A stretch of 64,000 nt of DNA, from assembly GCA_964658305.1 (NCBI GenBank), contig OZ210885.1:11904001-11968000 (forward strand), read 5' to 3'. Under the pieces are notes generated by a model. It saw only the letters and a list, made by a program, of their open reading frames with translations, had not been told where the DNA came from and did not search any database. Of this stretch, positions 35,401 through 64,000 are shown piece after piece. How positions within the stretch are numbered: position 1 is the stretch's first letter; each line of letters opens with the position of its first letter. The DNA comes from Leptogorgia sarmentosa. Taxonomy: Eukaryota. Both the position numbers and the translations under genes were made by a program.

Positions 35401-36779
35401 GCGTATGGAATGCATGCAGTAAACATGCGTGAATACAATGAAATGCCGTCGTAACGTAATCAACAGGTAATGAGAGATCACCACTCTTTTCCATAAGTCA
35501 GAACACGAATCGTATAAGATATTCACATCGTGTGGATGGGCCTTTATAGGTTTATTTCATTGTACTATTTTTATAGCATGATATTGAGATTGCATGTGCT
35601 ATCTGCCTTGGGACATTCGGTCCATATTGCACTATATTAGACAAAAAATATGCATGTAGTACACTGGAGGGCCGAGGGCATAATAAACAATCGCAAAAAC
35701 GTCCGCTATAATACAATTTACATGCATGCTATCAGTCGATTTAATCTCAGTCTTGTATTGATTAATTAACAGTGAATGTTTTATGCTGGAAAGAATGTAT
35801 CAACTTTTACGGACTGAAATGTTGCCAATCATATACTATAGTTTTTAAATGAAACTTGTAAACAAACTTGCGTGAGGTATACACTGCTAGTATTGAAGTT
35901 TGCTTTCGTATGAATTTGAAGACTTCGTCGCAACCTAATTAGTCAAGAACAGCAAATTTGCTAACAGCGCTACAGACTGAGCGTTGCTAAGTTGCAGTTA
36001 TATCGCTGAAAACCTGAAAACAATAAAGGTCCACCTGTTGTTTGGTCCCTGGTTATTGCATGCTCAAGTCTGTATTGAATAAGTCCGAAGTGAGGATGGA
36101 GGCTGCTTTGTTTGGCAATGCTCAATTCAATTTAGGATTTCAACAAATCGTGCCAAGTAGCGCTGTATGCATGACATGTCAGCGAATGAACACGCATCAG
36201 TCATATGTATGTTCACCATGATATAACCACCCAAGATTCAGTACAGATCGTAATGAAAAGCTTTAAAGCATTTATTAAATAATGATTCATGACCTCAGCT
36301 TTTATAAAAAGATCCAAATCTTGTCTAGTTTTATCAGTATCTTGTCTGAATAAATTAAGTTTAATTTACAAACAAGCGCTCTTGCATGACAAATACCTTA
36401 GATAAACTAAGTGGTGATATGAGGAGTTTATGTGCAATACAAGGCTCACGAAATCACAGATAATCAAAAGTGAGAGCGACATAGAACACCCTCACATAAC
36501 CTGAGACGATTTTACACGAATGGTAGAAGCGTAAAGGCATGTTTGTTTGTCATTGTGTTGCAACGTCATCAGATGGATATTGTGCTTTGAAAGGAAATTT
36601 GTAATATTGCATTTCCTAACGTTATTGTGCAAACTGGAAATAGTTTCAAAAATTTTTATAGTACTCACCGAATGTTGAATTCGCAAAGATGTTAAAAGCT
36701 TCTGTATTAACTTCTACGACGTAAATAAATGTCGTCACATATTGAGAACGCTCCAGCTTTTGCGTTTGTGGGTTTCACT
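29490..36779. repeat. ~2.08-kb non-coding tandem repeat (about 2.5 similar copies from ~31600 plus an older diverged copy)
   Basis: Near-identical short ORFs recur at offsets of 2081 (32335/34416, 32923/35004) and 2076 (36492). A diverged copy of the same sequence lies at ~29490-31570. Confidence 0.9.
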
Positions 36780-39121
36780 CACTGAGCTATACTTAATATA
36801 TCTGGAGATCGGGTCGTAATACAACGCCGTACAAAATAGTGTCGCCAAAAACATGGCGGATTTTAGCCAAATTTACGTCATTATGACGTAGTAAGTCCCC
36901 TATTTCAGGGGACTAACCACTGACCAAATAACATTGCCGAAAGTGAGCAGTTTTCTCACCCCCCCTGTCTCGAAATAAAATATTAAAATCCAGCTAACAT
37001 GATAACATCACGTCAAAGTTTTAAATTCAAAACAATATTTCGTTGAATTTTGTTGATTATCAACATGCCGCGTTTTTGCTATGTTTACGGATGTCACAAC
37101 TCCTTTGACAACAAAGAACTGTTGTCACACTGGTAAGGAAATTTTATTTTATGCTTATACATCGTTCGAGAGGTCGTATGTATGCTTAAATTTATTTACA
37201 ACAGTCTCTTAAGGCCAGTTTACAATATCAAAGTTTCTGCCATCACAGTAGGAATCTTGCATGGGTGAAACTTGAGGTTATTTTCACCAGATTTTTACAA
37301 TTACACTGTTCGTGAAACATGTACAGTACATTTATTGTTGATTAATATTAAACAAGAATGCTATGCTGGTCATGTGGCAAGTAAGACCATACAATCTTTA
37401 TCTTGGCCAATTTGTTCCATAACCTCCTTGGCTTCCCTGCATTCTGAATGCTCCCAGTTTGTGCTAAAAGGAATGATCTCTTCCATGCTGTCTAGAAATA
37501 GGGATGAAACTGTAGTTCGTATTCATTGCTCTTGTCATGGTCAAGTTGTTGAAGACATGGATGGCCACCTTAAATGTGCCCAATGTCAAACCAAAGGAAT
37601 GGTGGAAATGACTGGTAATAATGACACATTGAAGATAGGCATACTTGGAGTGTTACTGTGGAGTTTTATATTTATATCTTTCTGTGATACAATGGAATTT
37701 AACTGATTGATTGTCTTGTTTGTTCATAGTTGTTCAAACTTGATGGGTTCTGGTGATGGCAGTACAATCTTTGCATAACTATTATGCCCCCAAAAAGATG
37801 GGAGGAAGCAAGGTTCAGTGCACCACTGGCATGGGTGCCATGACATTGTTTTTAATAATAACTAAGTTTTAATAATGATTTCTTCAATAATAATATTGTT
37901 TTAAATAACTAATTAATATAATTAATTCATTTGTTAATAGTTGTTGTACATAGTTTTTAATAATTTGTTCTCCAATGTTCAGTAGCTGAAATAATAAATA
38001 AGGAAATAATAAATAAGTAAGTTAAAATTTAATCTGATTACTAATGTATTAATATATTTATTTTGTCTCAATCAATTCTATGCATATCTAATTCTCTTGA
38101 ATGCAAATTGATAAGTGCAATCACATTTGCCACATAACTGGACCATTTCACATTGTTTTTGAAGTTGAAAGCATCAAATTAAATTAGAAAGTGAACACAA
38201 TTCGATAAGTATTTATTTCTTAGTTGTGCTGGCTAATCAAAGTCAATATGCCAGCAAAATTAGGTGCTGAGCAAATGGGGATTGACATCCATAGAATTGG
38301 TTGAGGAACTTGTTTACTCATACTTGTGTTGTATGTGTTTTAAAATAAAAAAATAAATTTGTTGTGATTTGAATGTGAATATATTATTGTATATCCTGAA
38401 ATATTATATCATTATCTTGGAAATTTTCTGATAAAATATTATTCTTCAATGCAAATAAAAATGAGATATGAATTGCATAAAATGCAGATATCAAACATTC
38501 TAGATCAAGCATCTAAAAGGCAATTGTTCCTTGAATGTTCAATCAAATAGTGGCATTACCTTTTTCAAGCAAGACCATTATAAATATATACACTTCACTT
38601 CATATTGACATGCTGCACTTATTTTTCAATAATTTCATCGATAGAATATACCTGAAATTGCAATACATACATATACAAAACTTAGTGGTGATATCAGTGG
38701 TTATTACAATGAAACAACAACTTCGTCTTTAAACAACGTCTTATAGCTCAGTGGTGGCCGTCAGACAAGCAGTAAGCTCCATTCCTGTCCTCTTTAATCA
38801 ATCGCGTTCGGTATTTATATTTTATAGGCGCGTACATCAACAAATACAACAATATATTTTTGAGATGTAAGAGAATTTTAATACTTTATCTCAATTCTTT
38901 GAAAAAATATCAAAACAACACTGCAGTATACGTATATTTATATAGTAACAAACAGTAAAATCCAGGGGGGGGGGTTGGAAACGGCGCCTGCACACACTTC
39001 AACTGTGGTCAGTAATTACCATCATGAGAATAGGGGACGTGTGACGTAAAATCCGCCATGTTTTTGGCGACACTTCAAAGTGGAGAGCCCGATCTCCAGA
39101 TATATTAAGTATAGCTCAGTG
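36780..39121. mobile_element. 2.3-kb non-autonomous DNA transposon with CACTG...CAGTG ends
   Basis: 34-bp TIR CACTGAGCTATACTTAATATATCTGGAGATCGGG plus a subterminal inverted block AGTGTCGCCAAAAACATGGCGGATTTTA. THAP-like start MPRFCYVYGCHNS at 37065. Confidence 0.8.
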
Positions 39122-39270
39122 AACCTAACCATCAACGGCAATCGATTGCATATTCAAATCCAATCACACCCTACCCATATCCTAATCTTGACTCCAACTG
39201 ACTCATTCACAAATACGGGACAAACCTTGAAGCCAAATCCAATCCAAATTTCCCCCCATGATCCTTGGAC

Positions 39271-40230
39271 CATTGAACTAAAAATACCTGGAACGCTAAC
39301 TCCTATGATTTTCCCTATGATTGGCTGAAGCCGGCGCGCAAGAAAATTAACATTCAAAAGGACTGGGGAGAGTTCGAAGGAGCGAAAATTTTTTCACCCG
39401 GCTTGTTTTTGAGCAAAAATTGGCAAGAAATACACGGTTTTTAATAGAAAAACATCAATGTTTTGGGCTAACACAAGGTTGCCTGTTTAGATCCAACTGT
39501 TTTACGTCCATCTGCGGCAAAAAGTGAGGATTTTTATTTATATATTTCAAAAAAATGACAAATGTTTTGATGTGTCAAAAAAATTTGCTCTTCAACCGAC
39601 AAAAATATATATTATGAAACGTTTAAACAGTCCCAAACCTATTTTACAATAAACGCCAGGTATCCTTCTTGATTTTAAACGTTTTATTGCCGCTTTATAA
39701 CATTTAAAACATGAATAAATCGACGTTTTTCGAATGGTGTTATTTTCGGCTTCGCACGCAATTTGAGTACTTTGAATAAACATTGTTTTGGTCAATTTTT
39801 AAATGCATTTTTTTCGACTGTCAAACCTTCAATCTTCACGAAATTTCGCACACAGATGTATTTTACATAGGGTTAAATAATTCCTGAGGTTTGACGTCTT
39901 AGTTTCACCTCAGACTTTCAATAACTCAGAAAAAGTAACCAAAAACGCGCGGTTTTTTGGCTCGTTCATGTCAACAATGGATTTTTTTCTTATTTTTTTG
40001 CCAATTTGCGATTAGTTTATTTTGCGAATATAAAATTTAATTATCATGCTACTAATTTAAGTTAATTTTAGTGGCTAACTACTATTTAGGGGCAGGATTT
40101 ATGTGATTGAAAATGTGCTCATTTTACTACAAAAATTTAAAAAAGGACTGGGTCTACCTACAAAAACAGCTTCAAACACGGCTTCAACTTCCCCCCCTGA
40201 CTTAGCGTTCCAGGTATTTTTAGTTCAATG
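39271..40230. mobile_element. 960-bp MITE (P- or hAT-like) inserted in the first partial retroelement copy
   Basis: Perfect 29-bp TIR CATTGAACTAAAAATACCTGGAACGCTAA and an 8-bp TSD CCTTGGAC (39263-39270, 40231-40238). The site is empty in the later copies (46942-46949). Confidence 0.92.
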
Positions 40231-40365
40231 CCTTGGACCAACATCATGTCTGCTTCCACTTCCCCAACTCCACCTTCCCTCTCCTCTTTTCCCTCCACAT
40301 CTTATCCCAACAGGAAGCACCAGTCTTTACAAAATACAACTAGTCCCAACTACCGAAAACAAAGT

Positions 40366-41952
40366 CTAACCCCAACCCTAACCACTTCAAACCTTAATCC
40401 TTATGTACACCTTTGACCTAAACCCAACCCAATCCTTAACCTGACCATGACCACTTCAATCCCTAATCCTTATGTACAACTTTGACCTAAACCCCACCCA
40501 ATCCTTAACCTGACCATAACCACTTCAATCCCTAATCCTTATGTACACCTTTGACCTAAACCCAATCCTTAACCTGACCCTAACCAATCAAACCCTAATC
40601 CTTAAATACACCCTTGATCTAAACCCAACCCAATCCTTAACCTGACCCTAACCACTTCAAACCCTAATCCTTATCTACATATTTGACCTAAACCCAACCC
40701 AACCCTTAACCTGACCCTAACCACTTCAAACCCTAATCCTTATCTACATCCTTGACCTCAACCCCACCGAATCCTTAACCTGACCCTAACCACTTCAATC
40801 CTTATGTACACCTTTGACCTAAACCCAACCCAATCCTCAACCTGACCCTAACCACTTCAATCCCTAATCCTTGAATACACCACTTCAATCCCTAATCCTT
40901 AAATACACCCTTGATCTAAACCCCACCCAATCCTTAATGTGACCCTAACCACTTCAAACCCTAATCCTTATCTACCTATTTGACCTAAACCCAACCCAAC
41001 CCTTAACCTAACCCTAACCACTTCAATCCCTAATCCTTAAATACACCCTTGACTTAAACCCCACCGAATCCTTAACCTGACCCCAACCACTTCAACCCTT
41101 ATGTACACCTTTGATCTAAACCCAACCCAATCCTCAACCTGACCCTAACCACTTCAAGCCCTAATCCTTAAATACACCACTTCAATCCCTAATCCTTAAA
41201 TACACCCTTGATCTAAACCCCACCCAATCCTTAATGTGACCCTAACCACTTCAATCCCTAATCCTTAAATACACCACTTCAATCCCTAATCCTTAAATAC
41301 ACCTTTGACCTAAACCCCACCCAATCCTTAACCTGACCCTAACCACTTCAATCCCTAATCCTAAAATACACCCTTGACCTAAACCCCACCCAATCCTTAA
41401 CCTGACCCCAACCACTTCAAACCCTAATCCTTAAATACACCCTTGACCTAAACCCCACCGAATCCTTAACCTGACCCTAACCACTTGAATCCTTATGTAC
41501 ACCTTTGACCTAAACCCAACCCAATCCTTAACCTGACCCTAACCACTTCAAACGCTAATCCTTATGTACACCCTTGACCTAAACCCAACCCAATCCTTAA
41601 CCTGATCCTAACCACTTGAATCCTTATGTACACCTTTGACCTAAACCCAACCCAATCCTTAACCTGACCCTAACCACTTCAATCCCTAATCCTTATGTAC
41701 ACCCTTGACCTAAACCCAACCCAATCCTTAACCTGACCCTAACCACTTCAATCCCTAATCCAAAAATACACCCTTGACCTAAACCCCACCCAATCCTTAA
41801 CCTGACCCCAACCACTTCAAACCCTAATCCTTAAATACACCCTTGACCTAAACCCACCCAATCCTTAACCTGACCCTAGCCACTTCAATCCATAATCCTT
41901 AGGTACACCTTCGAGCTAAACCCAACCCAACCCTTTACCTGACCCCAACCAA
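40366..41952 (+). repeat. Telomere-like ~69-bp satellite, block 1
   Basis: Approximate consensus AACCACTTCAATCCCTAATCCTTATGTACACCTTTGACCTAAACCCAACCCAATCCTTAACCTGACCCT, made of CCCTAA variants. Confidence 0.95.
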
Positions 41953-42001
41953 TTCTGGCATGGAAGTCAACCCCAGGCTCTTAGAACCTATTCCCCGGCA
42001 C

Positions 42002-42065
42002 GTCTCCCATGGCAACGTTTACGAACTTGGATACGTCTCCATGGCAACGTCCCCGGTTTTTATAA
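42002..42065 (+). promoter_or_regulatory. Paired RFX X-box-like motifs followed by a TATA-like motif (repeated at +7352 and +14704)
   Basis: GTCTCCCATGGCAAC (42002-42016) and GTCTCCATGGCAAC (42035-42048) fit the GTNNCC-N(0-3)-RGYAAC X-box pattern; TTTTATAA follows. Confidence 0.55.
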
Positions 42066-42957
42066 TTCTCTTCGTCAAAAAAATTTTGTACGCAGAGTAC
42101 AGTCATTGACTGCCTTCGTAAGTTATCCATTTCTCACCTTAATATGTAATCCATGCCATTCCACTTCACCCAAACGCATTCACAAAAACTCACTCACCAT
42201 CTCCAACGGAATTTACTCATCTTCACAACTCGCAAAGACGAAAAAGTGAACCTGTTTTTTCGCGCCATTCAAAATTCAGTGTGAAACAAAACTTACATGC
42301 GAGCACGTCGTTCCAAGACCTGCTAGCAGGTTAGAAACGTGCTTTCCCAGTTATGCTTGGAGCCTGATGAAAACATAACTAATAGTTTTAAACGTAAAAC
42401 TAACAGGGACTAGGCCTGAGTGGCTCTACATTGGCAATCACTCTGGCCTTGGCATTCACACACAACACAAATGCACCCGGGTTTTGCCTACCTCATCCAG
42501 CAACCTCAACCACTACAACATCATGTCATTACTGATCATTCACTCATCTAATTTAATATTAATTCACTAACACTTCGTTCATCTAATCAAATCTCTTTTG
42601 GTTACAATATGATATGTTATAATATAATTACAAATCATTTGTGTCACCCAAAATCACTCCCTTAACAAAGGAACAGCCATTCAAACGTTTGTCCAGGATC
42701 CGAATACCTGTATCTAGACCCATTTTCTATTTCAAGCCGCCATAGACATGTTTATACACCCACAGGGAAAGGATAAGCATCATGAGATCTCCTGGTACAA
42801 AACAAATGGCTCTTTGGGTCACCAGTCATATCACATCTGTAAAACAAACAAAATAACACAGATTAATTATCATCACACCATTCACACCCTTCATTCATAT
42901 TTATCAAGCCTATAAAGCTTAAGCAACACTTTAGCTATTTTAACGCCATCCCAAGAC

Positions 42958-44052
42958 ATGGAGTCTGAAAGAGACATTTCAATGGAGGTAGACCAGACCT
43001 ACATAGGAGATCGAACCCTGGCCGCTCTGATTCCACCTATGAGCGACCAGGAGTTTGATCGACTCATCTCCAAGGAACCCATAGAGGAAGTACCTAGCCC
43101 CCCAGCGTCCGACACCCAACCCCAACCTTCCTCTCCCTTAACCCCCTTCACCTTAAACCTCCCCCCCAGTCCCCCCACACCCCAGCTAACCACCACCACC
43201 GATACCCACCCCCACACAAGCACATCCAACACTGACCCTACCCACCTAATACCTCAAACCACCACAGCACCTCCACCCACCACCACATCCACCTCCAACA
43301 CCACCCAAACCCACACAACACCCCAACCCACCATCACATCCACCCATTCCACACCACCAACCACCTCCACCACATCCACATCAACCATTCACTCCACCAC
43401 AACCACGTTCAACCAACTGGTTGAACTCCACCGAACCAAAACCCACCACACCCGACAAATCACCATCCTCAACAAGCATCTCCAAAATCACACAGCACCC
43501 AAAGGTCTCACCATCGACATGCAGCCCTGGGTCCAATTGTCTCAAACGCACAAGGAGGCGTGGGACGATGGCCTCAGGAACTGCATGTCCCATCTAACCA
43601 ACATCCTCCATCAACACCACACCCAACAACTGGAGAATGTAGAGCAACGCATCTCTACACTCTCCTCATCCATCGACAAGCACGTCCCAAAGGAAGTGTC
43701 CTCAACCATCCTCGACATCGCCACCCGCAAACCACCAAAACGCAAACCAAAACCACCATCCCACCAACCACGTAAACGCTTCAAACCACCCGCTACCACA
43801 ACGGATTTTCGGAAATGGCCACCACGTCCTCCACATCGCCACAACCCATCACCACCTCACCGTCACCGCCAACCATCAAACCAACCCCACCTACCACCAC
43901 CAACCACAAACCAACACCCGCCACCACGAACCACACCACAACACCTGACACCGGTGCCGAACGTGACACCGGAGTCAATCCGCCAACGCCTGGTGGGGAA
44001 GCAAAAACAGTTCTCCACCATCTTCAACATGTTCATGAAAGGAGGGCAATAA
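42958..44052 (+). CDS. PLE ORF1: Pro/Thr-rich region, Penelope/Neptune-type N-terminal helical domain, basic NLS-like patch
   Basis: 364 aa. APKGLTI..QP.....W...LRNCMSHLTNIL resembles the P(R/K)GL.I..P...W...L..C...L segment that precedes the RT in PLEs (recognised from memory). TATAAAG at 42911. Confidence 0.75.
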   Translation: MESERDISMEVDQTYIGDRTLAALIPPMSDQEFDRLISKEPIEEVPSPPASDTQPQPSSPLTPFTLNLPPSPPTPQLTTTTDTHPHTSTSNTDPTHLIPQTTTAPPPTTTSTSNTTQTHTTPQPTITSTHSTPPTTSTTSTSTIHSTTTTFNQLVELHRTKTHHTRQITILNKHLQNHTAPKGLTIDMQPWVQLSQTHKEAWDDGLRNCMSHLTNILHQHHTQQLENVEQRISTLSSSIDKHVPKEVSSTILDIATRKPPKRKPKPPSHQPRKRFKPPATTTDFRKWPPRPPHRHNPSPPHRHRQPSNQPHLPPPTTNQHPPPRTTPQHLTPVPNVTPESIRQRLVGKQKQFSTIFNMFMKGGQ

Positions 44053-45903
44053 AGTCCTTCTTTCATGAACACGCCCGAAGGAAAGCCAGCGTTAAAAATC
44101 ACGATAAAAAACACTATCGACAACAAATTGTGAATCACACCAACAATAACCTCAATGTCAACCTCACCCATCATAAATTAGAAGCACCACTCCAATCCAT
44201 GCTCTCCAAGGGCCTCAGATTCGTACCAACACCAGGCAATACTCGTCTGAAAACCATTGTTAATTCATTCAAACAATTCAGACGTTCCATGTACATACAT
44301 TACCATTTCAGGAACTCATCCAATGACCATCCAAATCCATTTAAAACCACTAGCACGTGGGAACCACCTCTGCCAGACAATCCAAATCTAATTTCATACA
44401 TTTGTTCTGTTGCAGAATCCATCAATCAGACCTTCAAACATAACCATCAAGACCACATCATCTCCAATCTAAACCAAGAGGAAATTAATCTTCTCAACAC
44501 ATATAATATTCATAATCAAAAATATGTCATTAAACCAGCAGACAAAGGAGGTGCCATTGTCATATGGTCCTCAGTCGACTATGAGAAAGAAGCACTCTCT
44601 CAACTTAATGACAACAAATACTATGAATATATACCAACCACACCCACTACAGTCATCTCCAAACAAACCCACAAAATCACTCAGTATGTCAGAAATCTCT
44701 ACAAATGTGGAGACATTGACTACAAAACACTACAACATCTGCTACCACCTTCACCACCACGTACACCAATATTTTACCTCCTACCCAAAATTCACAAACC
44801 TGGAAATCCAGGAAGACCAATCATATCAGGGTGTGATTCACCAACGGACAGGCTTTCCTCATTCATCGATATCCACATCAAACCATTTTGTGCTTCATTA
44901 CCATCCTACATCAAAGACACAAATCATTTTTTACAAACCATTTTCAACCTTGACACACCATTACCACCCAACACCATCCTTGCCACCATTGATGTCAAGT
45001 CCTTATACACCAACGTCCCTCACAACGAAGGGATCCAAGCTGTCCTGGAAACACTGGACACAAAACATGGACGTATGTGGCCACTCCGTAATGTCATACA
45101 CCAATTCCTTGAATACATACTCAAGGAAAACTATTTCACATTCAAGGATAAACTGTACCTCCAAAAACATGGCACAGCGATGGGCACCAAAATGGCTCCC
45201 TCCTTTGCCAACATATTCATGGGGGCACTTGAACAATCCATACTTTCATCGACACCAAACCAACTTGTTCCTCTCCTGTGGAAGAGATTCATAGATGATA
45301 TATTTCTAGTTTGGACACATGGTGAGGAATCATTCAATTCATTCATTCAACATCTCAATTCATTTCACTCCACCATAAAATTCGAAGTCACACACTCCAC
45401 CGAGAGTGTAAATCTACATCACACCACAACACACACTCCAAACCACCCTCTATATCAAACCAACCGACCGTATGCCACTTCTACATAACACTTCACACCA
45501 TCCGGACACCTGTAAAAAAAGCTTAATATACAGTCAAATGCTGCGATACAGGAGGATAATCACTGACGACAATGAGTTTCAACGAAAAGCTCAAAACTTG
45601 AGAGTAGCACTCATTGGAAGAGGTTACAAAAACAAAGATATCCTACCTCACATTGACAGGGCATCCACATACACACAATCACAATTACTTTCCAGCAGCT
45701 CATCCACAGACCATGCACGCACCATACCATTTGTCATACCATATCATCCAGAATTATCACCATTGCCTCACATCCTCAAACAACACTGGCAATACATTGA
45801 AAATGATCCTGTCTTATCACAGATATGGCCAAACCAACCGGTTATGGCTTATCAAAGACACAAGAACCTCAAAGAACACTTTGTCCGCACCAAATTCACC
45901 TAA
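43815..45903 (+). pseudogene. Penelope-like reverse transcriptase plus thumb, frameshifted at ~45412, no GIY-YIG
   Basis: LSKGLRFVPTP, KPADKGG, FYLLPKIHK, GRPIISG, IDVKSLYTN, GTAMGTKMAPSFANIFM, WKRFIDDIF. The thumb (TTLYIKPTD...SHHP...LRYRRI) continues in another frame and stops at KNLKEHFVRTKFT*. Confidence 0.9.
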
Positions 45904-47076
45904 CACACACACCACATACCACAGCGAAAGATATGACCCCATACCACACCACCACAAGCCACCAACACCGAACACCACCAGCGTGCAGACACCGAACAAA
46001 GATTCAAAATACCCAGAAGCCGTCACAACTCCAGCTTATGACAGATACTTACCAAAACATACTATGAAACCCAGATATCGGGCGGCAGGAACACCTCCAC
46101 ACAAACAACCCTAAGGCTGAAGACACATTCATTAAACAATATCATGGATTTGATAAAGACCCTCAGACCTCCTATTAACAACTCCATGGCCAAAACCATC
46201 CTTGCAACATCAACATGGACACCGTATATAAACTCATTAATGCATACATAATGGAACTTATATTCCACAGGCCCTCACACTGTATATGGCCTGTCGGGTT
46301 TCACCTGACTACCAGTCACCTCCTTTGTTTATGCTCAGTCGTGGCATGAACCCAGCGATCAGTAAATATATAATACTCTCAGGTCTATATCGACCCAATG
46401 TAACAGAAAAACATAATAGACTAAACAAACAACTACTAGATCAATATAATAAAACAACAAATGATTCTCACCCTTTGTTGAACATCACTCAAAATCACTT
46501 CCATCCAACAACCTCACATTCATCCACACACCACAAAATCGATCGATTCATCATCACACCAATTCAATATTCTCATCGCCACATCGTATTAATTAGAATT
46601 CCAACACTCCATCACATGTCGCAAAAAATCATCACACAATTATCCACCGCCATCCATCATCACCATCACTATCCACCAGGTTATATACGTTAATCCATCG
46701 CCATCCTCCATCATCACATCAGCCTCCACTTACCTAACCCTCTTTCCTCTTCTCCCAACATATCGAGACGTTCCAAGTGGAAACACCACACGACAAAACG
46801 GAACCTAACCATCAACGGCAATCGATTGCATATTCAAATCCAATCACACCCTACCCATATCCTAATCTTGACTCCAACCGACTCATTCACAAATACGGGA
46901 CAAACCTTGAAGCCAAATCCAATCCAAATTTTCCCCATGATCCTTGGACCAACATCATGTCTGCTTCCACTTCCCCAACTCCACCTTCCCTCTCCTCTTT
47001 TCCCTCCACATCTTATCCCAACAGGAAGCACCAGTCTTTACAAAATACAACTAGTCCCAACTACCGAAAACAAAGT

Positions 47077-49304
47077 CTAACCCCAACCCTAACCACTTCA
47101 AACCTTAATCCTTATGTACACCTTTGACCTAAACCCAACCCAATCCTTAACCTGACCATGACCACTTGAATCCCTAATCCTTATGTACACCTTTGACCTA
47201 AACCCAACCCAATCCTTAACCTGACCCTAACCACTTCAATCCCTATTCCTTATCTACATATTTGACCTAAACCCAACCCAACCCTTAACCTGACCCTAAC
47301 CACTTCAAACCTTAATCCTTATGTACACCTTTGACCTAAACCCAACCCAATCCTTAACCTGACCATAACCACTTCAATCCCTAATCCTTATGTACACCTT
47401 TGACCTAAACCCAACCCAACCCTTAACCTGACCCTAACCACTTCAATCCCTAATCCTGAAATACACCCTTGACCTCAACCCCACCCAATCCTTAACCTGA
47501 CCCTAACCACTTCAATCCCTAATCCTTAAATACATCCTTGACCTCAACCCCACTGAATCCTTAACCTGACCCTAACCACTTCAATCGTTATGTACACCTT
47601 TGACCTAAACCCAACCCAATCCTCAACCTGACCCTAACCACTTCAATCCCTAATCCTTGAATACACCACTTCAATCCCTAATCCTTAAATACACCCTTGA
47701 TCTAAACCCCACCCAATCCTTAATGTGACCCTAACCACTTCAATCCCTAATCCTTAAATACACCACTTCAATCCCTAATCCTTAAATATACCTTTGACCT
47801 AAACCCCACCCAATCCTTAACCTGACCCTAACCACTTCAATCCTTATGTACATAATTGACCTAAACCCCACCCAATCCTTAACCTGACCCTAACCAATCA
47901 AACCCTAATCCTTAAATACACCACTTCAATCCCTAATCCTTAAATACACCCTTGATCTAAACCCCACCCAATCCTTAACCTGACCCTAACCACTTCAATC
48001 CCTAATCCTTATGTACACCTTCGACCTAAACCCCACCCAATCCTTAACCTGACCCTAACCAATCAATCCCTAATCCTTATGTGCACTTTGACCCAAACCC
48101 AACCCAATCCTTAACCTGACCATAACAAATCCAATCCTTATGTACACATTTAACCAAAACCCAACCCAATCCTTAACCTGACCCTAACCACTTCAATCCC
48201 TAATCCTTATGTACACCCTTGACCTAAACCCCACCCAATCCTTAACCTGACCCTAACCAATCTGACCCTAATCATTATGTACACCCTTGACCTAAACCCA
48301 ACCCAATCCTTAACCTGACCCTAACCAATTCAAACCCTAATCCTTAAATACACCCTTGACCTAAACCCCATCGAATCCTTAACCTGACCCTAACCACTTC
48401 AAACCCTAATCCTTAAATACACCCTTGACCTAAACCCCACCGAATCCTCAACCTGACCCTAACCACTTCAAACCCTAATCCTTAAATACACCCTTGACCT
48501 AGACCCCACCGAATCCTTAACCTGACCCTAACCACTTCAACCCTTATGTACACCTTCGACCTAAACCCAACCCAATCCTCAACCTGACCCTAAGCACTTC
48601 AATCCCTAATCCTTAAATACACCACTTCAATCCCTAATCCTTAAATATACCTTTGACGTAAACCCAACCCAATCCTTAACCTGACCCTAACCACTTCAAT
48701 CCCTAATCCTAAAATACACCCTTGACCTAGACCCCACCCAATCCTTAACCTGACCCAACCACTTCAATCCCTAATCCTTAAATACACCTTTGACCTAAAC
48801 CCACCCAATCCTTAACCTGACCCTAACCACTTCAAACCCTAATCCTTAAATACACCTTTGACCTAAACCCACCCAATCCTTAACCTGACCCCAACCACTT
48901 CAAACCCTAATCCTTAAATACACCTTTGACCTAAACCCAACCCAATCCTTAACCTGACCCTAACCACTTGAATCCTTATGTACACCTTTGACCTAAACCC
49001 AACCCAATCCTTAACCTGACCCTAACCACTTCAATCCCTAATCCTTATGTACACCCTTGACCTAAACCCAACCCAATCCTTAACCTGACCCTAACCACTT
49101 CAATCCCTAATCCAAAAATACACCCTTGACCTAAACCCCACCCAATCCTTAACCTGACCCCAACCACTTCAAACCCTAATCCTTAAATACACCCTTGACC
49201 TAAACCCACCCAATCCTTAACCTGACCCTAGCCACTTCAATCCATAATCCTTAGGTACACCTTCGAGCTAAACCCAACCCAACCCTTTACCTGACCCAAA
49301 CCAA
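47077..49304 (+). repeat. Telomere-like ~69-bp satellite, block 2
   Basis: Same monomer, ~2.23 kb. Confidence 0.95.
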
Positions 49305-50309
49305 TTCTGGCATGGAAGTCAACCCCAGGCTCTTAGAACCTATTCCCCGGCACGTCTCCCATGGCAACGTTTACGAACTTGGATACGTCTCCATGGCAAC
49401 GTCCCCGGTTTTTATAATTCTCTCCGTCAAAAAAATTTTGTACGCAGAGTACAGTCATTGGCTGCCTTCGTAAGTTATCCATTTCTCACCTTAATATGTA
49501 ATCCATGCCATTCCACTTCACCCAAACGCATTCACAAAAACTCACTCACCATCTCCAACGGAATTTACTCATCTTCACAACTCGCAAAGACGAAAAAGTG
49601 AACCTGTTTTTTCGCGCCATTCAAAATTCAGTGTGAAACAAAACTTACATGCGAGCACGTCGTTCCAAGACCTGCTAGCAGGTTAGAAACGTGCTTTCCC
49701 AGTTATGCTTGGAGCCTGATGAAAACATAACTAATAGTTTTAAACGTAAAACTAACAGGGACTAGGCCTGAGTGGCTCTACATTGGCAATCACTCTGGCC
49801 TTGGCATTCACACACAACACAAATGCACCCGGGTTTTGCCTACCTCATCCAGCAACCTCAACCACTACAACATCATGTCATTACTGATCATTCACTCATC
49901 TAATTTAATATTAATTCACTAACACTTCGTTCATCTAATCAAATCTCTTTTGGTTACAATATGATATGTTATAATATAATTACAAATCATTTGTGTCACC
50001 CAAAATCACTCCCTTAACAAAGGAACAGCCATTCAAACGTTTGTCCAGGATCCGAATACCTGTATCTAGACCCATTTTCTATTTCAAGCCGCCATAGACA
50101 TGTTTATACACCCACAGGGAAAGGATAAGCATCATGAGATCTCCTGGTACAAAACAAATGGCTCTTTGGGTCACCAGTCATATCACATCTGTAAAACAAA
50201 CAAAATAACACAGATTAATTATCATCACACCATTCACACCCTTCATTCATATTTATCAAGCCTATAAAGCTTAAGCAACACTTTAGCTATTTTAACGCCA
50301 TCCCAAGAC

Positions 50310-51404
50310 ATGGAGTCTGAAAGAGACATTTCAATGGAGGTAGACCAGACCTACATAGGAGATCGAACCCTGGCCGCTCTGATTCCACCTATGAGCGACC
50401 AGGAGTTTGATCGACTCATCTCCAAGGAACCCATAGAGGAAGTACCTAGCCCCCCAGCGTCCGACACCCAACCCCAACCTTCCTCTCCCTTAACCCCCTT
50501 CACCTTAAACCTCCCCCCCAGTCCCCCCACACCCCAGCTAACCACCACCACCGATACCCACCCCCACACAAGCACATCCAACACTGACCCTACCCACCTA
50601 ATACCTCAAACCACCACAGCACCTCCACCCACCACCACATCCACCTCCAACACCACCCAAACCCACACAACACCCCAACCCACCATCACATCCACCCATT
50701 CCACACCACCAACCACCTCCACCACATCCACATCAACCATTCACTCCACCACAACCACGTTCAACCAACTGGTTGAACTCCACCGAACCAAAACCCACCA
50801 CACCCGACAAATCACCATCCTCAACAAGCATCTCCAAAATCACACAGCACCCAAAGGTCTCACCATCGACATGCAGCCCTGGGTCCAATTGTCTCAAACG
50901 CACAAGGAGGCGTGGGACGATGGCCTCAGGAACTGCATGTCCCATCTAACCAACATCCTCCATCAACACCACACCCAACAACTGGAGAATGTAGAGCAAC
51001 GCATCTCTACACTCTCCTCATCCATCGACAAGCACGTCCCAAAGGAAGTGTCCTCAACCATCCTCGACATCGCCACCCGCAAACCACCAAAACGCAAACC
51101 AAAACCACCATCCCACCAACCACGTAAACGCTTCAAACCACCCGCTACCACAACGGATTTTCGGAAATGGCCACCACGTCCTCCACATCGCCACAACCCA
51201 TCACCACCTCACCGTCACCGCCAACCATCAAACCAACCCCACCTACCACCACCAACCACAAACCAACACCCGCCACCACGAACCACACCACAACACCTGA
51301 CACCGGTGCCGAACGTGACACCGGAGTCAATCCGCCAACGCCTGGTGGGGAAGCAAAAACAGTTCTCCACCATCTTCAACATGTTCATGAAAGGAGGGCA
51401 ATAA
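50310..51404 (+). CDS. PLE ORF1, copy 2
   Basis: Translation identical to 42958-44052. Confidence 0.75.
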   Translation: MESERDISMEVDQTYIGDRTLAALIPPMSDQEFDRLISKEPIEEVPSPPASDTQPQPSSPLTPFTLNLPPSPPTPQLTTTTDTHPHTSTSNTDPTHLIPQTTTAPPPTTTSTSNTTQTHTTPQPTITSTHSTPPTTSTTSTSTIHSTTTTFNQLVELHRTKTHHTRQITILNKHLQNHTAPKGLTIDMQPWVQLSQTHKEAWDDGLRNCMSHLTNILHQHHTQQLENVEQRISTLSSSIDKHVPKEVSSTILDIATRKPPKRKPKPPSHQPRKRFKPPATTTDFRKWPPRPPHRHNPSPPHRHRQPSNQPHLPPPTTNQHPPPRTTPQHLTPVPNVTPESIRQRLVGKQKQFSTIFNMFMKGGQ

Positions 51405-53255
51405 AGTCCTTCTTTCATGAACACGCCCGAAGGAAAGCCAGCGTTAAAAATCACGATAAAAAACACTATCGACAACAAATTGTGAATCACACCAACAATA
51501 ACCTCAATGTCAACCTCACCCATCATAAATTAGAAGCACCACTCCAATCCATGCTCTCCAAGGGCCTCAGATTCGTACCAACACCAGGCAATACTCGTCT
51601 GAAAACCATTGTTAATTCATTCAAACAATTCAGACGTTCCATGTACATACATTACCATTTCAGGAACTCATCCAATGACCATCCAAATCCATTTAAAACC
51701 ACTAGCACGTGGGAACCACCTCTGCCAGACAATCCAAATCTAATTTCATACATTTGTTCTGTTGCAGAATCCATCAATCAGACCTTCAAACATAACCATC
51801 AAGACCACATCATCTCCAATCTAAACCAAGAGGAAATTAATCTTCTCAACACATATAATATTCATAATCAAAAATATGTCATTAAACCAGCAGACAAAGG
51901 AGGTGCCATTGTCATATGGTCCTCAGTCGACTATGAGAAAGAAGCACTCTCTCAACTTAATGACAACAAATACTATGAATATATACCAACCACACCCACT
52001 ACAGTCATCTCCAAACAAACCCACAAAATCACTCAGTATGTCAGAAATCTCTACAAATGTGGAGACATTGACTACAAAACACTACAACATCTGCTACCAC
52101 CTTCACCACCACGTACACCAATATTTTACCTCCTACCCAAAATTCACAAACCTGGAAATCCAGGAAGACCAATCATATCAGGGTGTGATTCACCAACGGA
52201 CAGGCTTTCCTCATTCATCGATATCCACATCAAACCATTTTGTGCTTCATTACCATCCTACATCAAAGACACAAATCATTTTTTACAAACCATTTTCAAC
52301 CTTGACACACCATTACCACCCAACACCATCCTTGCCACCATTGATGTCAAGTCCTTATACACCAACGTCCCTCACAACGAAGGGATCCAAGCTGTCCTGG
52401 AAACACTGGACACAAAACATGGACGTATGTGGCCACTCCGTAATGTCATACACCAATTCCTTGAATACATACTCAAGGAAAACTATTTCACATTCAAGGA
52501 TAAACTGTACCTCCAAAAACATGGCACAGCGATGGGCACCAAAATGGCTCCCTCCTTTGCCAACATATTCATGGGGGCACTTGAACAATCCATACTTTCA
52601 TCGACACCAAACCAACTTGTTCCTCTCCTGTGGAAGAGATTCATAGATGATATATTTCTAGTTTGGACACATGGTGAGGAATCATTCAATTCATTCATTC
52701 AACATCTCAATTCATTTCACTCCACCATAAAATTCGAAGTCACACACTCCACCGAGAGTGTAAATCTACATCACACCACAACACACACTCCAAACCACCC
52801 TCTATATCAAACCAACCGACCGTATGCCACTTCTACATAACACTTCACACCATCCGGACACCTGTAAAAAAAGCTTAATATACAGTCAAATGCTGCGATA
52901 CAGGAGGATAATCACTGACGACAATGAGTTTCAACGAAAAGCTCAAAACTTGAGAGTAGCACTCATTGGAAGAGGTTACAAAAACAAAGATATCCTACCT
53001 CACATTGACAGGGCATCCACATACACACAATCACAATTACTTTCCAGCAGCTCATCCACAGACCATGCACGCACCATACCATTTGTCATACCATATCATC
53101 CAGAATTATCACCATTGCCTCACATCCTCAAACAACACTGGCAATACATTGAAAATGATCCTGTCTTATCACAGATATGGCCAAACCAACCGGTTATGGC
53201 TTATCAAAGACACAAGAACCTCAAAGAACACTTTGTCCGCACCAAATTCACCTAA
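51167..53255 (+). pseudogene. Penelope-like RT, copy 2, same frameshift
   Basis: Translation identical to copy 1. Confidence 0.9.
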
Positions 53256-54428
53256 CACACACACCACATACCACAGCGAAAGATATGACCCCATACCACA
53301 CCACCACAAGCCACCAACACCGAACACCACCAGCGTGCAGACACCGAACAAAGATTCAAAATACCCAGAAGCCGTCACAACTCCAGCTTATGACAGATAC
53401 TTACCAAAACATACTATGAAACCCAGATATCGGGCGGCAGGAACACCTCCACACAAACAACCCTAAGGCTGAAGACACATTCATTAAACAATATCATGGA
53501 TTTGATAAAGACCCTCAGACCTCCTATTAACAACTCCATGGCCAAAACCATCCTTGCAACATCAACATGGACACCGTATATAAACTCATTAATGCATACA
53601 TAATGGAACTTATATTCCACAGGCCCTCACACTGTATATGGCCTGTCGGGTTTCACCTGACTACCAGTCACCTCCTTTGTTTATGCTCAGTCGTGGCATG
53701 AACCCAGCGATCAGTAAATATATAATACTCTCAGGTCTATATCGACCCAATGTAACAGAAAAACATAATAGACTAAACAAACAACTACTAGATCAATATA
53801 ATAAAACAACAAATGATTCTCACCCTTTGTTGAACATCACTCAAAATCACTTCCATCCAACAACCTCACATTCATCCACACACCACAAAATCGATCGATT
53901 CATCATCACACCAATTCAATATTCTCATCGCCACATCGTATTAATTAGAATTCCAACACTCCATCACATGTCGCAAAAAATCATCACACAATTATCCACC
54001 GCCATCCATCATCACCATCACTATCCACCAGGTTATATACGTTAATCCATCGCCATCCTCCATCATCACATCAGCCTCCACTTACCTAACCCTCTTTCCT
54101 CTTCTCCCAACATATCGAGACGTTCCAAGTGGAAACACCACACGACAAAACGGAACCTAACCATCAACGGCAATCGATTGCATATTCAAATCCAATCACA
54201 CCCTACCCATATCCTAATCTTGACTCCAACCGACTCATTCACAAATACGGGACAAACCTTGAAGCCAAATCCAATCCAAATTTTCCCCATGATCCTTGGA
54301 CCAACATCATGTCTGCTTCCACTTCCCCAACTCCACCTTCCCTCTCCTCTTTTCCCTCCACATCTTATCCCAACAGGAAGCACCAGTCTTTACAAAATAC
54401 AACTAGTCCCAACTACCGAAAACAAAGT

Positions 54429-56656
54429 CTAACCCCAACCCTAACCACTTCAAACCTTAATCCTTATGTACACCTTTGACCTAAACCCAACCCAATCCTT
54501 AACCTGACCATGACCACTTGAATCCCTAATCCTTATGTACACCTTTGACCTAAACCCAACCCAATCCTTAACCTGACCCTAACCACTTCAATCCCTATTC
54601 CTTATCTACATATTTGACCTAAACCCAACCCAACCCTTAACCTGACCCTAACCACTTCAAACCTTAATCCTTATGTACACCTTTGACCTAAACCCAACCC
54701 AATCCTTAACCTGACCATAACCACTTCAATCCCTAATCCTTATGTACACCTTTGACCTAAACCCAACCCAACCCTTAACCTGACCCTAACCACTTCAATC
54801 CCTAATCCTGAAATACACCCTTGACCTCAACCCCACCCAATCCTTAACCTGACCCTAACCACTTCAATCCCTAATCCTTAAATACATCCTTGACCTCAAC
54901 CCCACTGAATCCTTAACCTGACCCTAACCACTTCAATCGTTATGTACACCTTTGACCTAAACCCAACCCAATCCTCAACCTGACCCTAACCACTTCAATC
55001 CCTAATCCTTGAATACACCACTTCAATCCCTAATCCTTAAATACACCCTTGATCTAAACCCCACCCAATCCTTAATGTGACCCTAACCACTTCAATCCCT
55101 AATCCTTAAATACACCACTTCAATCCCTAATCCTTAAATATACCTTTGACCTAAACCCCACCCAATCCTTAACCTGACCCTAACCACTTCAATCCTTATG
55201 TACATAATTGACCTAAACCCCACCCAATCCTTAACCTGACCCTAACCAATCAAACCCTAATCCTTAAATACACCACTTCAATCCCTAATCCTTAAATACA
55301 CCCTTGATCTAAACCCCACCCAATCCTTAACCTGACCCTAACCACTTCAATCCCTAATCCTTATGTACACCTTCGACCTAAACCCCACCCAATCCTTAAC
55401 CTGACCCTAACCAATCAATCCCTAATCCTTATGTGCACTTTGACCCAAACCCAACCCAATCCTTAACCTGACCATAACAAATCCAATCCTTATGTACACA
55501 TTTAACCAAAACCCAACCCAATCCTTAACCTGACCCTAACCACTTCAATCCCTAATCCTTATGTACACCCTTGACCTAAACCCCACCCAATCCTTAACCT
55601 GACCCTAACCAATCTGACCCTAATCATTATGTACACCCTTGACCTAAACCCAACCCAATCCTTAACCTGACCCTAACCAATTCAAACCCTAATCCTTAAA
55701 TACACCCTTGACCTAAACCCCATCGAATCCTTAACCTGACCCTAACCACTTCAAACCCTAATCCTTAAATACACCCTTGACCTAAACCCCACCGAATCCT
55801 CAACCTGACCCTAACCACTTCAAACCCTAATCCTTAAATACACCCTTGACCTAGACCCCACCGAATCCTTAACCTGACCCTAACCACTTCAACCCTTATG
55901 TACACCTTCGACCTAAACCCAACCCAATCCTCAACCTGACCCTAAGCACTTCAATCCCTAATCCTTAAATACACCACTTCAATCCCTAATCCTTAAATAT
56001 ACCTTTGACGTAAACCCAACCCAATCCTTAACCTGACCCTAACCACTTCAATCCCTAATCCTAAAATACACCCTTGACCTAGACCCCACCCAATCCTTAA
56101 CCTGACCCAACCACTTCAATCCCTAATCCTTAAATACACCTTTGACCTAAACCCACCCAATCCTTAACCTGACCCTAACCACTTCAAACCCTAATCCTTA
56201 AATACACCTTTGACCTAAACCCACCCAATCCTTAACCTGACCCCAACCACTTCAAACCCTAATCCTTAAATACACCTTTGACCTAAACCCAACCCAATCC
56301 TTAACCTGACCCTAACCACTTGAATCCTTATGTACACCTTTGACCTAAACCCAACCCAATCCTTAACCTGACCCTAACCACTTCAATCCCTAATCCTTAT
56401 GTACACCCTTGACCTAAACCCAACCCAATCCTTAACCTGACCCTAACCACTTCAATCCCTAATCCAAAAATACACCCTTGACCTAAACCCCACCCAATCC
56501 TTAACCTGACCCCAACCACTTCAAACCCTAATCCTTAAATACACCCTTGACCTAAACCCACCCAATCCTTAACCTGACCCTAGCCACTTCAATCCATAAT
56601 CCTTAGGTACACCTTCGAGCTAAACCCAACCCAACCCTTTACCTGACCCAAACCAA
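54429..56656 (+). repeat. Telomere-like ~69-bp satellite, block 3
   Basis: Same length as block 2 and apparently the same order of variants. Confidence 0.95.
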
Positions 56657-60607: not shown

Positions 60608-61780
60608 CACACACACCACATACCACAGCGAAAGATATGACCCCATACCACACCACCACAAGCCACCAACACCGAACACCACCAGCGTGCAGACACCGAA
60701 CAAAGATTCAAAATACCCAGAAGCCGTCACAACTCCAGCTTATGACAGATACTTACCAAAACATACTATGAAACCCAGATATCGGGCGGCAGGAACACCT
60801 CCACACAAACAACCCTAAGGCTGAAGACACATTCATTAAACAATATCATGGATTTGATAAAGACCCTCAGACCTCCTATTAACAACTCCATGGCCAAAAC
60901 CATCCTTGCAACATCAACATGGACACCGTATATAAACTCATTAATGCATACATAATGGAACTTATATTCCACAGGCCCTCACACTGTATATGGCCTGTCG
61001 GGTTTCACCTGACTACCAGTCACCTCCTTTGTTTATGCTCAGTCGTGGCATGAACCCAGCGATCAGTAAATATATAATACTCTCAGGTCTATATCGACCC
61101 AATGTAACAGAAAAACATAATAGACTAAACAAACAACTACTAGATCAATATAATAAAACAACAAATGATTCTCACCCTTTGTTGAACATCACTCAAAATC
61201 ACTTCCATCCAACAACCTCACATTCATCCACACACCACAAAATCGATCGATTCATCATCACACCAATTCAATATTCTCATCGCCACATCGTATTAATTAG
61301 AATTCCAACACTCCATCACATGTCGCAAAAAATCATCACACAATTATCCACCGCCATCCATCATCACCATCACTATCCACCAGGTTATATACGTTAATCC
61401 ATCGCCATCCTCCATCATCACATCAGCCTCCACTTACCTAACCCTCTTTCCTCTTCTCCCAACATATCGAGACGTTCCAAGTGGAAACACCACACGACAA
61501 AACGGAACCTAACCATCAACGGCAATCGATTGCATATTCAAATCCAATCACACCCTACCCATATCCTAATCTTGACTCCAACCGACTCATTCACAAATAC
61601 GGGACAAACCTTGAAGCCAAATCCAATCCAAATTTTCCCCATGATCCTTGGACCAACATCATGTCTGCTTCCACTTCCCCAACTCCACCTTCCCTCTCCT
61701 CTTTTCCCTCCACATCTTATCCCAACAGGAAGCACCAGTCTTTACAAAATACAACTAGTCCCAACTACCGAAAACAAAGT

Positions 61781-64000
61781 CTAACCCCAACCCTAACCAC
61801 TTCAAACCTTAATCCTTATGTACACCTTTGACCTAAACCCAACCCAATCCTTAACCTGACCATGACCACTTCAAACCCTAATCCTTATGTACACCTTTGA
61901 CCTAAACCCAACCCAATCCTTAACCTGACCCTAACCACTTCAATCCCTATTCCTTATCTACATATTTGACCTAAACCCAACCCAACCCTTAACCTGACCC
62001 TAACCACTTCAAACCTTAATCCTTATGTACACCTTTGACCTAAACCCAACCCAATCCTTAACCTGACCATAACCACTTCAATCCCTAATCCTTATGTACA
62101 CCTTTGACCTAAACCCAACCCAACCCTTAACCTGACCCTAACCACTTCAATCCCTAATCCTTAAATACACCCTTGACCTTGACCTCAACCCCACCCAATC
62201 CTTAACCTGACCCTAACCACTTCAATCCCTAATCCTTAAATACATCCTTGACCTCAACCCCACCGAATCCTTAACCTGACCCTAACCACTTCAATCGTTA
62301 TGTACACCTTTGACCTAAACCCAACCCAATCCTCAACCTGACCCTAACCACTTCAATCCCTAATCCTTGAATACACCACTTCAATCCCTAATCCTTAAAT
62401 ACACCCTTGATCTAAACCCCACCTAATCCTTAATGTGACCCTAACCACTTCAATCCCTAATCCTTAAATACACCACTTCAATCCCTAATCCTTAAATATA
62501 CCTTTGACCTAAACCCCACCAAATCCTTAACCTGACCCTAACCACTTCAATCCTTATGTACATAATTGACCTAAACCCCACCCAATCCTTAACCTGACCC
62601 TAACCAATCAAACCCTAATCCTTAAATACACCACTTCAATCCCTAATCCTTAAATACACCCTTGATCTAAACCCCACCCAATCCTTAACCTGACCCTAAC
62701 CACTTCAATCCCTAATCCTTATGTACACCTTCGACCTAAACCCCACCCAATCCTTAACCTGACCCTAACCAATCAATCCCTAATCCTTATGTGCACTTTG
62801 ACCTAAACCCAACCCAATCCTTAACCTGACCATAACAAATCCAATCCTTATGTACACATTTAACCAAAACCCAACCCAATCCTTAACCTGACCCTAACCA
62901 CTTCAAACCTTATCCTTATGTACAACTTTGACCTTAACCCAACCCAATCCTTAACCTGACCCTAACCACTTCAATCCCTAATCCTTATGTACACCCTTGA
63001 CCTAAACCCCACCCAATCCTTAACCTGACCCTAACCAATCTAACCCTAATCCTTATGTACACCCTTGACCTAAACCCAACCCAATCCTTAACCTGACCCT
63101 AACCACTTCAACCCTAATCCTTAAATACACCCTTGACCTAAACCCCACCGAATCCTTAACCTGACCCTAACCACTTCAAACCCTAATCCTTAAATACACC
63201 CTTGACCTAAACCCCACCGAATCCTTAACCTGACCCTAACCACTTCAAACCCTAATCCTTAAATACACCCTTGACCTAAACCCCACCGAATCCTTAACCT
63301 GACCCTAACCACTTCAACCCTTATGTACACCTTCGACCTAAACCCAACCCAATCCTCAACCTGACCCTAAGCACTTCAATCCCTAATCCTTAAATACACC
63401 ACTTCAATCCCTAATCCTTAAATATACCTTTGACGTAAACCCAACCCAATCCTTAACCTGACCCTAACCACTTCAATCCCTAATCCTAAAATACACCCTT
63501 GACCTAGACCCCACCCAATCCTTAACCTGACCCCAACCACTTCAATCCCTAATCCTTAAATACACCTTTGACCTAAACCCACCCAATCCTTAACCTGACC
63601 CTAACCACTTCAAACCCTAATCCTTAAATACACCTTTGACCTAAACCCACCCAATCCTTAACCTGACCCCAACCACTTCAAACCCTAATCCTTAAATACA
63701 CCTTTGACCTAAACCCAACCCAATCCTTAACCTGACCCTAACCACTTGAATCCTTATGTACACCTTTGACCTAAACCCAACCCAATCCTTAACCTGACCA
63801 TGACCACTTCAATCCCTAATCCTTATGTACACCTTTGACCTAAACCCAACCCAATCCTTAACCTGACCATAACCACTTCAAACCCTAATCCTTATCTACA
63901 TATTTGACCTAAACACAACCCAACCCTTAACCTGACCCTAACCACTTCAATCCCTAATCCTTATGTACACCTTTGACCTCAACCCCACCGAATCCTTAAC
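61781..64000 (+). repeat. Telomere-like ~69-bp satellite, block 4 (incomplete at the window end)
   Basis: Same monomer, with local indels relative to blocks 2 and 3. Confidence 0.95.

Follow-up and report, generated by a model that had tools for sequence, protein, structure and literature searches.

A window of 64,000 nucleotides of the Leptogorgia sarmentosa genome (contig OZ210885.1, positions 11,904,001 to 11,968,000; hereafter the window, with all coordinates counted from its first letter) contains a retroelement array in which each unit ends in a block of telomere-like satellite. This raises the question of what such a satellite does in a retroelement. Nuclease-less Penelope-like elements (PLEs) are the sister group of telomerase reverse transcriptase, and how they obtain a primer has only been proposed.

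The array and its nuclease-less element

The array and its immediate surroundings comprise the following features:

36780..39121, strand not assigned: inverted-repeat-bounded DNA element of 2.3 kb, adjoining the array's left end
39121..40364, plus strand: unit 0 remnant (3' UTR end, different allele), interrupted by a MITE
39271-40230: MITE within the unit 0 remnant, with 32-bp inverted repeats and an 8-bp target duplication
50310..51404, plus strand: ORF1, 364 aa, with copies at 42958 and 57662
51167..53255, plus strand: ORF2, PLE reverse transcriptase (RT) ending at the thumb, broken by a 17-nt deletion

The units stand head to tail with a period of 7352 bp from 39121 to the window end, and comprise the remnant unit 0 and three full units, each with ORF1, an overlapping ORF2 with the RT, a 3' UTR and the satellite. 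A partial upstream copy followed by full 7352-bp units is the tandem arrangement (pLTR) of PLEs. On its 5' side the array joins the inverted-repeat element and then 39 kb of genic DNA, and it is interstitial at this locus. No CCCTAA or TTAGGG dimer was found within 39 kb left of the array. A simple interstitial telomere is ruled out by the absence of perfect (TTAGGG)n runs, since no CCCTAACCCTAA occurs within the 64-kb window. Because the left junction adjoins the inverted-repeat element and has no clear target duplication, it is uninformative on insertion. That element sits between a ~2.08-kb tandem repeat (29451-36779) and the PLE array, a position that suggests rearrangement. Further left, APAF1-like NB-ARC/WD40 gene pieces lie on the minus strand (705-28910; best named homologs from Dendronephthya, Paramuricea and Xenia), and their span includes a plus-strand tyrosine-recombinase/DUF3504 ORF (3035-4291), which we take to be Crypton-like. 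A short, unrelated telomere-like motif is present on the minus strand of the left flank (10541-10609; z 5.6).

Judged from its coding sequence, the satellite carrier is an endonuclease-less PLE of 7352 bp with the satellite in its terminal part. Pfam recognizes the RT domain of ORF2 (RVT_1, E=1.9e-12); Pfam scans of eight frames found no GIY-YIG nuclease, and the CxnCxxC linker is also absent. The RT-killing 17-nt deletion is common to all three full units (45412, 52764 and 60116), and an intact RT form is present in contigs from all four of the four runs. Two of the four ORF1 homologs are from Paramuricea clavata, which, with the coral homologs of the APAF1-like gene, indicates a likely octocoral host, and ORF1 is weakly similar to the upstream ORF of a nuclease-bearing (EN+) PLE locus, L001. 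The two ORFs overlap at 51128-51404, with both frames kept in homologs and with a G GAU UUU heptamer and an ATG at the overlap start. A -1 frameshift at the heptamer (51155, in register with ORF1) is unsupported: downstream structure is absent (z 0.41) and the DF motif is not kept in 4 of 4 ORF1 homologs, the ATG there being the alternative.

The distribution of the nuclease among RT homologs was assessed in the best 120 of 3551 matches, of which 83 (≥540 aa) were classified by their tails: 45 end ≤40 aa from the thumb point, 23 continue into a nuclease (in 22 cases with a CxnCxxC linker of the Neptune/Nematis type), one has a different, non-nuclease tail, and the remaining 14 are truncated. 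The closest RT homologs listed have 82-85% identity, are 584-607 aa long and end at the thumb; RT+GIY-YIG proteins at 39-44% identity are among the homologs that share the Pfam set of the window RT. Unrooted FastTree trees, built from search matches only and without the 14 truncated proteins, P0013 and 36 proteins under 540 aa, place nuclease-less and nuclease-bearing proteins on two sides of one branch (support 100 for full-length and 99 for core-only alignments), with the window RT among the nuclease-less rows. This split, at a support of 99-100, indicates that nuclease loss is old and shared. By its protein sequence, the window RT belongs to an old, large and diverse nuclease-less PLE group of marine animals, a description of which was not found in the literature searched, which lacked key primary reports. 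A Nematostella protein (P0024) also falls among the nuclease-less RTs.

A metagenome scan yielded 16 more distant PLE loci (30-61% best-segment identity), and no telomere-like array or satellite was found in these 16. L001 and L004 are PLEs that carry the nuclease; each has an upstream ORF of its own, a minimal type I hammerhead and, downstream, a long additional region containing a C2H2-like motif.

Satellite blocks, telomere likeness and allele switches

The satellite occupies four blocks, with a relic in the 3' UTR:

40365-41948, plus strand: satellite block 1, 1584 bp, interior reshuffled, a different allele from block 2
46851..46920, plus strand: degenerate monomer relic in the 3' UTR (z 4.7 against the monomer)
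47076-49300, plus strand: satellite block 2, 2225 bp, 32 monomer pieces, C-rich on the element sense strand
54428-56652, plus strand: satellite block 3, 2225 bp, identical to block 2
61780-64000, plus strand: satellite block 4, >2221 bp, running to the window end

The monomer is 69 bp long, and variants of 62, 68 and 97 bp are also present. The block lengths given in the initial annotation hold (1584, 2225, 2225 and >2221 bp, block 1 being the shortest complete block), and so do the shared block starts and ends that it described: the first monomer is the same in all four blocks, and at the other end blocks 1 and 2 agree in their last four full monomers and differ by one SNP in the partial monomer that closes them. 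As had been claimed, the 5121-bp unique parts are nearly invariant, with two SNPs between unit 1 and units 2 and 3 and none between units 2 and 3; indeed, 12,410 consecutive bases (42110-54519) are identical to those 7352 bases further along. The claimed variability of the satellite between units applies to blocks 1 and 4, which differ from blocks 2 and 3, but not to blocks 2 and 3 themselves, which show no differences over 2225 bp. Block 4 is colinear with block 2 through monomer 27, with 13 substitutions and four indels. Its indels near 62172 and its overrun of the expected end had been reported from the first reading and are real features of the assembled sequence: block 4 contains a 6-bp duplication at ~62171 and an extra 68-bp monomer at ~62868, never reaches the terminal monomers and restarts at ~63767-63800 with start-of-block monomers. 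The monomers after the restart most resemble the early monomers of blocks 1 and 2.

TTAGGG is the expected host telomere motif (in the portion of PMC10236652 available), and the monomer had been described as a derivative of CCCTAA with few perfect runs. Comparison with shuffled controls bears this out. Aligned to (CCCTAA)n, the majority monomer scores 30; mononucleotide shuffles score 8.5±3.9 and dinucleotide shuffles 12.0±4.1, and 0 of 5000 of either kind reach the monomer's score. CCCTAA is the top-ranked of 670 primitive hexamers; with 67 units tested on 300 shuffled sequences it came first only four times, and no tested hexamer reached a score of 30. Plain word counts are weaker against dinucleotide shuffles (P=0.045 for exact words and 0.13 with ≤1 mismatch), and the 7-mer AACCCTT scores 29, near the 30 of CCCTAA. 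The longest perfect telomeric run is 10 nt, with a single run of 13 nt in block 1, and perfectly complementary runs of ≥9 nt number 15-23 per block. The sense strand of the element is the C-rich, CCCTAA-like strand, though a degenerate one. Taken together, these alignments support a telomeric derivation of the 69-bp satellite.

Contigs from several studies hold many variants of the satellite, and viral and prokaryote collections gave no match to a 20-nt monomer motif. In X6, the summed contig depth of the satellite, which is not a copy number, far exceeds that of the 3' UTR. A single X13 contig joins the satellite to inverted element sequence and a single X6 contig joins it to the satellite's opposite strand (47187; 47243-47311).

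The differences among blocks are not spread evenly. Four of them cluster at 41606-42109 (the last ~370 bp of block 1 and the first 160 bp of unique DNA) and the following ~4960 bp have none (P~9e-5 if spread evenly), which places the switch between units 0 and 1 downstream of the satellite, probably before ~42440 as estimated from the divergence rate. The 3' UTR remnant of unit 0 has a divergence of ~1%, and this, together with the differences at the edge of block 1, marks unit 0 as another allele. The unique part before block 4 is identical to units 1-2, yet block 4 differs from block 2, so a second switch lies at or shortly before 61872. A third switch (~63767-63800), inside the satellite, is by its monomer order a true out-of-register junction. 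Given these block differences, several alleles of the element are likely combined in the array as a mosaic; no junction signal was seen in blocks 2 and 3. The proposal that junctions between units form inside the satellite is thus upheld by the restart in block 4, and possibly by the left edge of that block, but fails for the unit 0/1 switch. These junctions would be compatible with either RNA annealing or unequal exchange, which sequence alone does not separate.

Hammerhead-like motif and transcripts

Three further features bear on the RNA of the element:

44905..46471, minus strand: antisense GT-AG-type introns (donor 46471; acceptors 46117 and 45275; second intron 45158-44905)
46448..46470, plus strand: AATAAA and polyA end (one X4 contig; the A's begin 17 nt past AATAAA)
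49651..49737, plus strand: hammerhead-like motif of SGC order (site 49659-61, GAAA 49686, CUGAUGA 49716)

The hammerhead-like motif has identical copies at 42299 and 57003 and lies 360 nt downstream of each complete satellite block. Stems I and III have 8 bp each, all core letters are present and a 7-bp helix joins the free sides of stems I and II; stem II is weak, with 2-3 bp after an A·A mismatch (duplex -0.9 kcal/mol). The motif was matched by 1 of 1000 shuffled sequences in one test and by 4 of 3000 in a second; these figures are post hoc, since the motif was first spotted by eye. The predicted cleavage site in unit 1 (42309) is ~200 bp from the allele switch after 42109 and falls within that switch interval. 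An Rfam search of 39000-49400 returned no hammerhead match and one chance match, no type I-III hammerhead motif was found on the plus (sense) strand and no hammerhead directly upstream of the satellite, and homolog searches gave 0 matches in viral contigs. We regard 49651-49737 as a candidate SGC-order hammerhead in an animal genome, of which no description was found in the literature searched, which lacked key primary reports.

Contigs of X2, X4, X12 and X13 were taken as RNA on the basis of GT-AG joints and the polyA end. Antisense splicing appears as joints in X2 with matching loose ends (46467/46472) in X4, X12 and X13, i.e. in three studies and at canonical sites; bidirectional transcription of PLEs has been argued previously (PMC3846280, in the part available). 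One antisense contig carries an upstream exon absent from the window, and the antisense splice donor (46471) adjoins the sense polyA end (46470). The latter lies ~600 bp upstream of the satellite, so at least some sense RNA has no tract at its 3' end. An X2 contig crosses from the 3' UTR into the first monomer and an X4 contig from the last monomers into downstream DNA (strand not assigned). Pure telomeric repeats are absent from the contig loose ends and joints listed.

Role of the satellite and comparison with known systems

The reading that we favour, at roughly even odds (about 0.5), is that the minisatellite of this stacked, EN-less PLE is a pad that pairs element RNA with a G-rich DNA end and thereby primes reverse transcription, with the blocks forming an allele mosaic. 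The proposed steps are as follows: (i) read-through RNA bearing the satellite would be cleaved into unit-length molecules at the hammerhead-like site of SGC order that lies 360 nt downstream; (ii) its C-rich tract would find a G-rich partner in a telomere overhang or a broken satellite copy; (iii) the RT would be supplied in trans from an intact copy elsewhere; (iv) out-of-register pairing to satellite DNA would produce the restart in block 4; (v) a single event, either DNA-level duplication or copying from a multimeric template, would have produced the three identical dead units; and (vi) ordinary minisatellite turnover between alleles would have reshuffled block interiors, with the edges staying fixed. 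EN-minus PLEs are reported to attach to, or prime on, G-rich 3' overhangs by means of telomeric stretches that run in reverse complement next to a hammerhead (PMC8557442, PMC6431247 and PMC13159263, as excerpted). A priming or landing-pad role is favoured by the old nuclease loss, the polarity of the tract, the 15-23 complementary runs per block and the out-of-register junction. The allele switch close to the hammerhead-like motif also speaks for it, as do the intact RT and the many satellite variants in contigs of other runs. Against it stand the interstitial locus, the lack of pure telomeric joints among the listed contig ends, the polyA end at 46470 upstream of the satellite, the position of the hammerhead-like site after the tract, its weak stem II and the 16 distant PLE loci without a telomere-like array.

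The identical dead units and the identity of blocks 2 and 3 are equally well explained by DNA duplication, to which the one RT-killing deletion common to all three full units points. This leads to the main alternative, a substantial possibility that we nevertheless hold only tentatively, in which the satellite would be a passenger, namely an interstitial telomere-like VNTR captured in the terminal repeat, with the array growing and diverging by DNA-level unequal exchange and conversion and the element priming at ordinary DNA breaks. Besides the dead units and blocks 2 and 3, it would account for conserved edges around a shuffled interior, which are typical of minisatellites, and it agrees with the interstitial position, with a polyA end upstream of the satellite, with telomere-like motifs elsewhere (e.g. 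10541-10609, minus strand) and with the telomere-containing interstitial satellites described for Porites (PMC10236652, in part). However, it leaves unexplained why the tract has the polarity of telomeric EN-minus PLEs, a modest point given that this is a 1-in-2 coincidence, and why an allele switch lies beside the hammerhead-like site. If the satellite is only a passenger, the locus is an ordinary VNTR in a dead retroelement array.

The priming reading can also be extended, in a form that we consider unlikely, to an octocoral branch of a widespread nuclease-less PLE lineage with its own 2-kb pseudo-telomere, in which RNA cut by an SGC hammerhead would self-prime on the satellite and build HeT-A-like arrays without a nuclease or a chromosome end.

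It is improbable that the pattern is in part an assembly artefact, with units 1-3 over-duplicated and block 4 crossing from one haplotype or locus to another. Such an origin would suit the 12,410 bp of perfect periodic identity, the monomer-majority base that block 4 has in 9 of 13 colinear substitutions (counted by eye), as mis-polishing would give, and a comparison based on assembled contigs; it sits poorly with the private changes of block 4 (62424, 62521, the 6-bp duplication and the extra monomer), with block 1 differences linked to flanking SNPs and the MITE, and with the abundance of satellite variants in contigs of several studies.

The initial annotation had also suggested that the minus strand may form G-quadruplexes or bind telomere proteins, a suggestion that is weakly supported at best. 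The satellite has a mean G4Hunter score of 0.9, compared with 1.5 for TTAGGG repeats, no G4 motifs with 1-7-nt loops and three with loops ≤12 nt. The POT1-type site was taken as TTAGGGTTAG and the TRF half-site as YTAGGGTTR; the former occurs 0-1 times and the latter 1-3 times per block. By these scores the G4 potential of the satellite is modest and shelterin-type sites are nearly absent. That the satellite acts as a DNA or chromatin mimic of telomeres (through G-quadruplexes or TRF or POT1 binding) and so shelters or localises the array is therefore very improbable, for although 17% of its 25-nt windows reach G4Hunter ≥1.2, each block has 25 long-loop G3 motifs, antisense G4 potential is common among telomeric retrotransposons (PMC10088271, in part) and TRF is present in cnidarians (PMC8653790, in part), it has no short-loop G4 motif, the ORF1 minus strand is equally rich in such windows (20%) and the two kinds of binding site are as scarce as stated.

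Returning to the priming role, a long, polymorphic minisatellite serving as the pairing tract would record each junction in its monomer order, so that priming is mappable from long reads. The searches expose a diverse nuclease-less PLE group of marine animals and a candidate SGC-order animal hammerhead.

Published systems resemble this element in different respects; except for Neptune and Nematis, their descriptions follow excerpts of the papers cited. The 188-nt satellite of Porites is likewise an interstitial cnidarian satellite that contains telomeric sequence; unlike the window satellite, it is palindromic and intergenic and, in the excerpts, not reported within a retroelement (PMC10236652). 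Drosophila HeT-A, TART and TAHRE share a head-to-tail arrangement, an A/C-rich sense strand, antisense transcripts and, in some, tandem repeats, but they are Jockey-clade LINEs that replace telomerase, whereas the window element is a PLE at an interstitial locus (PMC10088271). Type-SGC hammerheads have the same order of site, GAAA and CUGAnGA, the same core letters and an extra helix joining stems I and II; they were published from metatranscriptomes rather than from the genomes of identified organisms, and the window candidate has a stem II of only 2-3 bp after an A·A mismatch (PMC10085705).

Among PLEs, the nuclease-bearing Neptune and Nematis have a CxnCxxC linker (PMC8557442), which 22 of the 23 nuclease-bearing homologs classified here also carry. 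Neptune identity is ruled out for the window element, which has neither linker nor nuclease. The EN+ loci L001, L004 and L010 differ from it in having minimal type I (CGS) hammerheads and no telomere-like array. Athena, Coprina and MjPLE01 were set beside the window RT by their published descriptions. MjPLE01 of the kuruma shrimp is EN-minus and Neptune-like, so a thumb-ending RT does occur in a marine invertebrate (PMC8557442, PMC13159263). Coprina, including the two-ORF Coprina-1_Alen, shares a nuclease-less PLE RT ending at the thumb; Coprina-1_Alen, however, is flanked by true telomeric repeats at chromosome ends, and the excerpts describe no satellite there (PMC13159263).

A close parallel in organization is Athena/Terminon of bdelloid rotifers, which likewise has no endonuclease, two ORFs and head-to-tail arrays (PMC8557442, PMC6431247, PMC3846280). 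In both it and the window element, the sense strand bears telomere-type sequence in reverse complement, close to a hammerhead in the former and to a hammerhead-like motif in the latter. They differ in three respects: (i) Athena/Terminon has a short telomeric stretch 3' of the hammerhead, at its 3' end, whereas the window element has a degenerate minisatellite of 1.6-2.2 kb; (ii) the order is hammerhead then tract in the former, and tract then motif, 360 nt on, in the latter; and (iii) Athena/Terminon copies lie at chromosome ends, capped by telomeric repeats, whereas the window array abuts genic DNA. Because the array is not terminal at this locus and its tract does not directly follow a hammerhead, we do not file the element under Athena/Coprina, although it likely works as they do.
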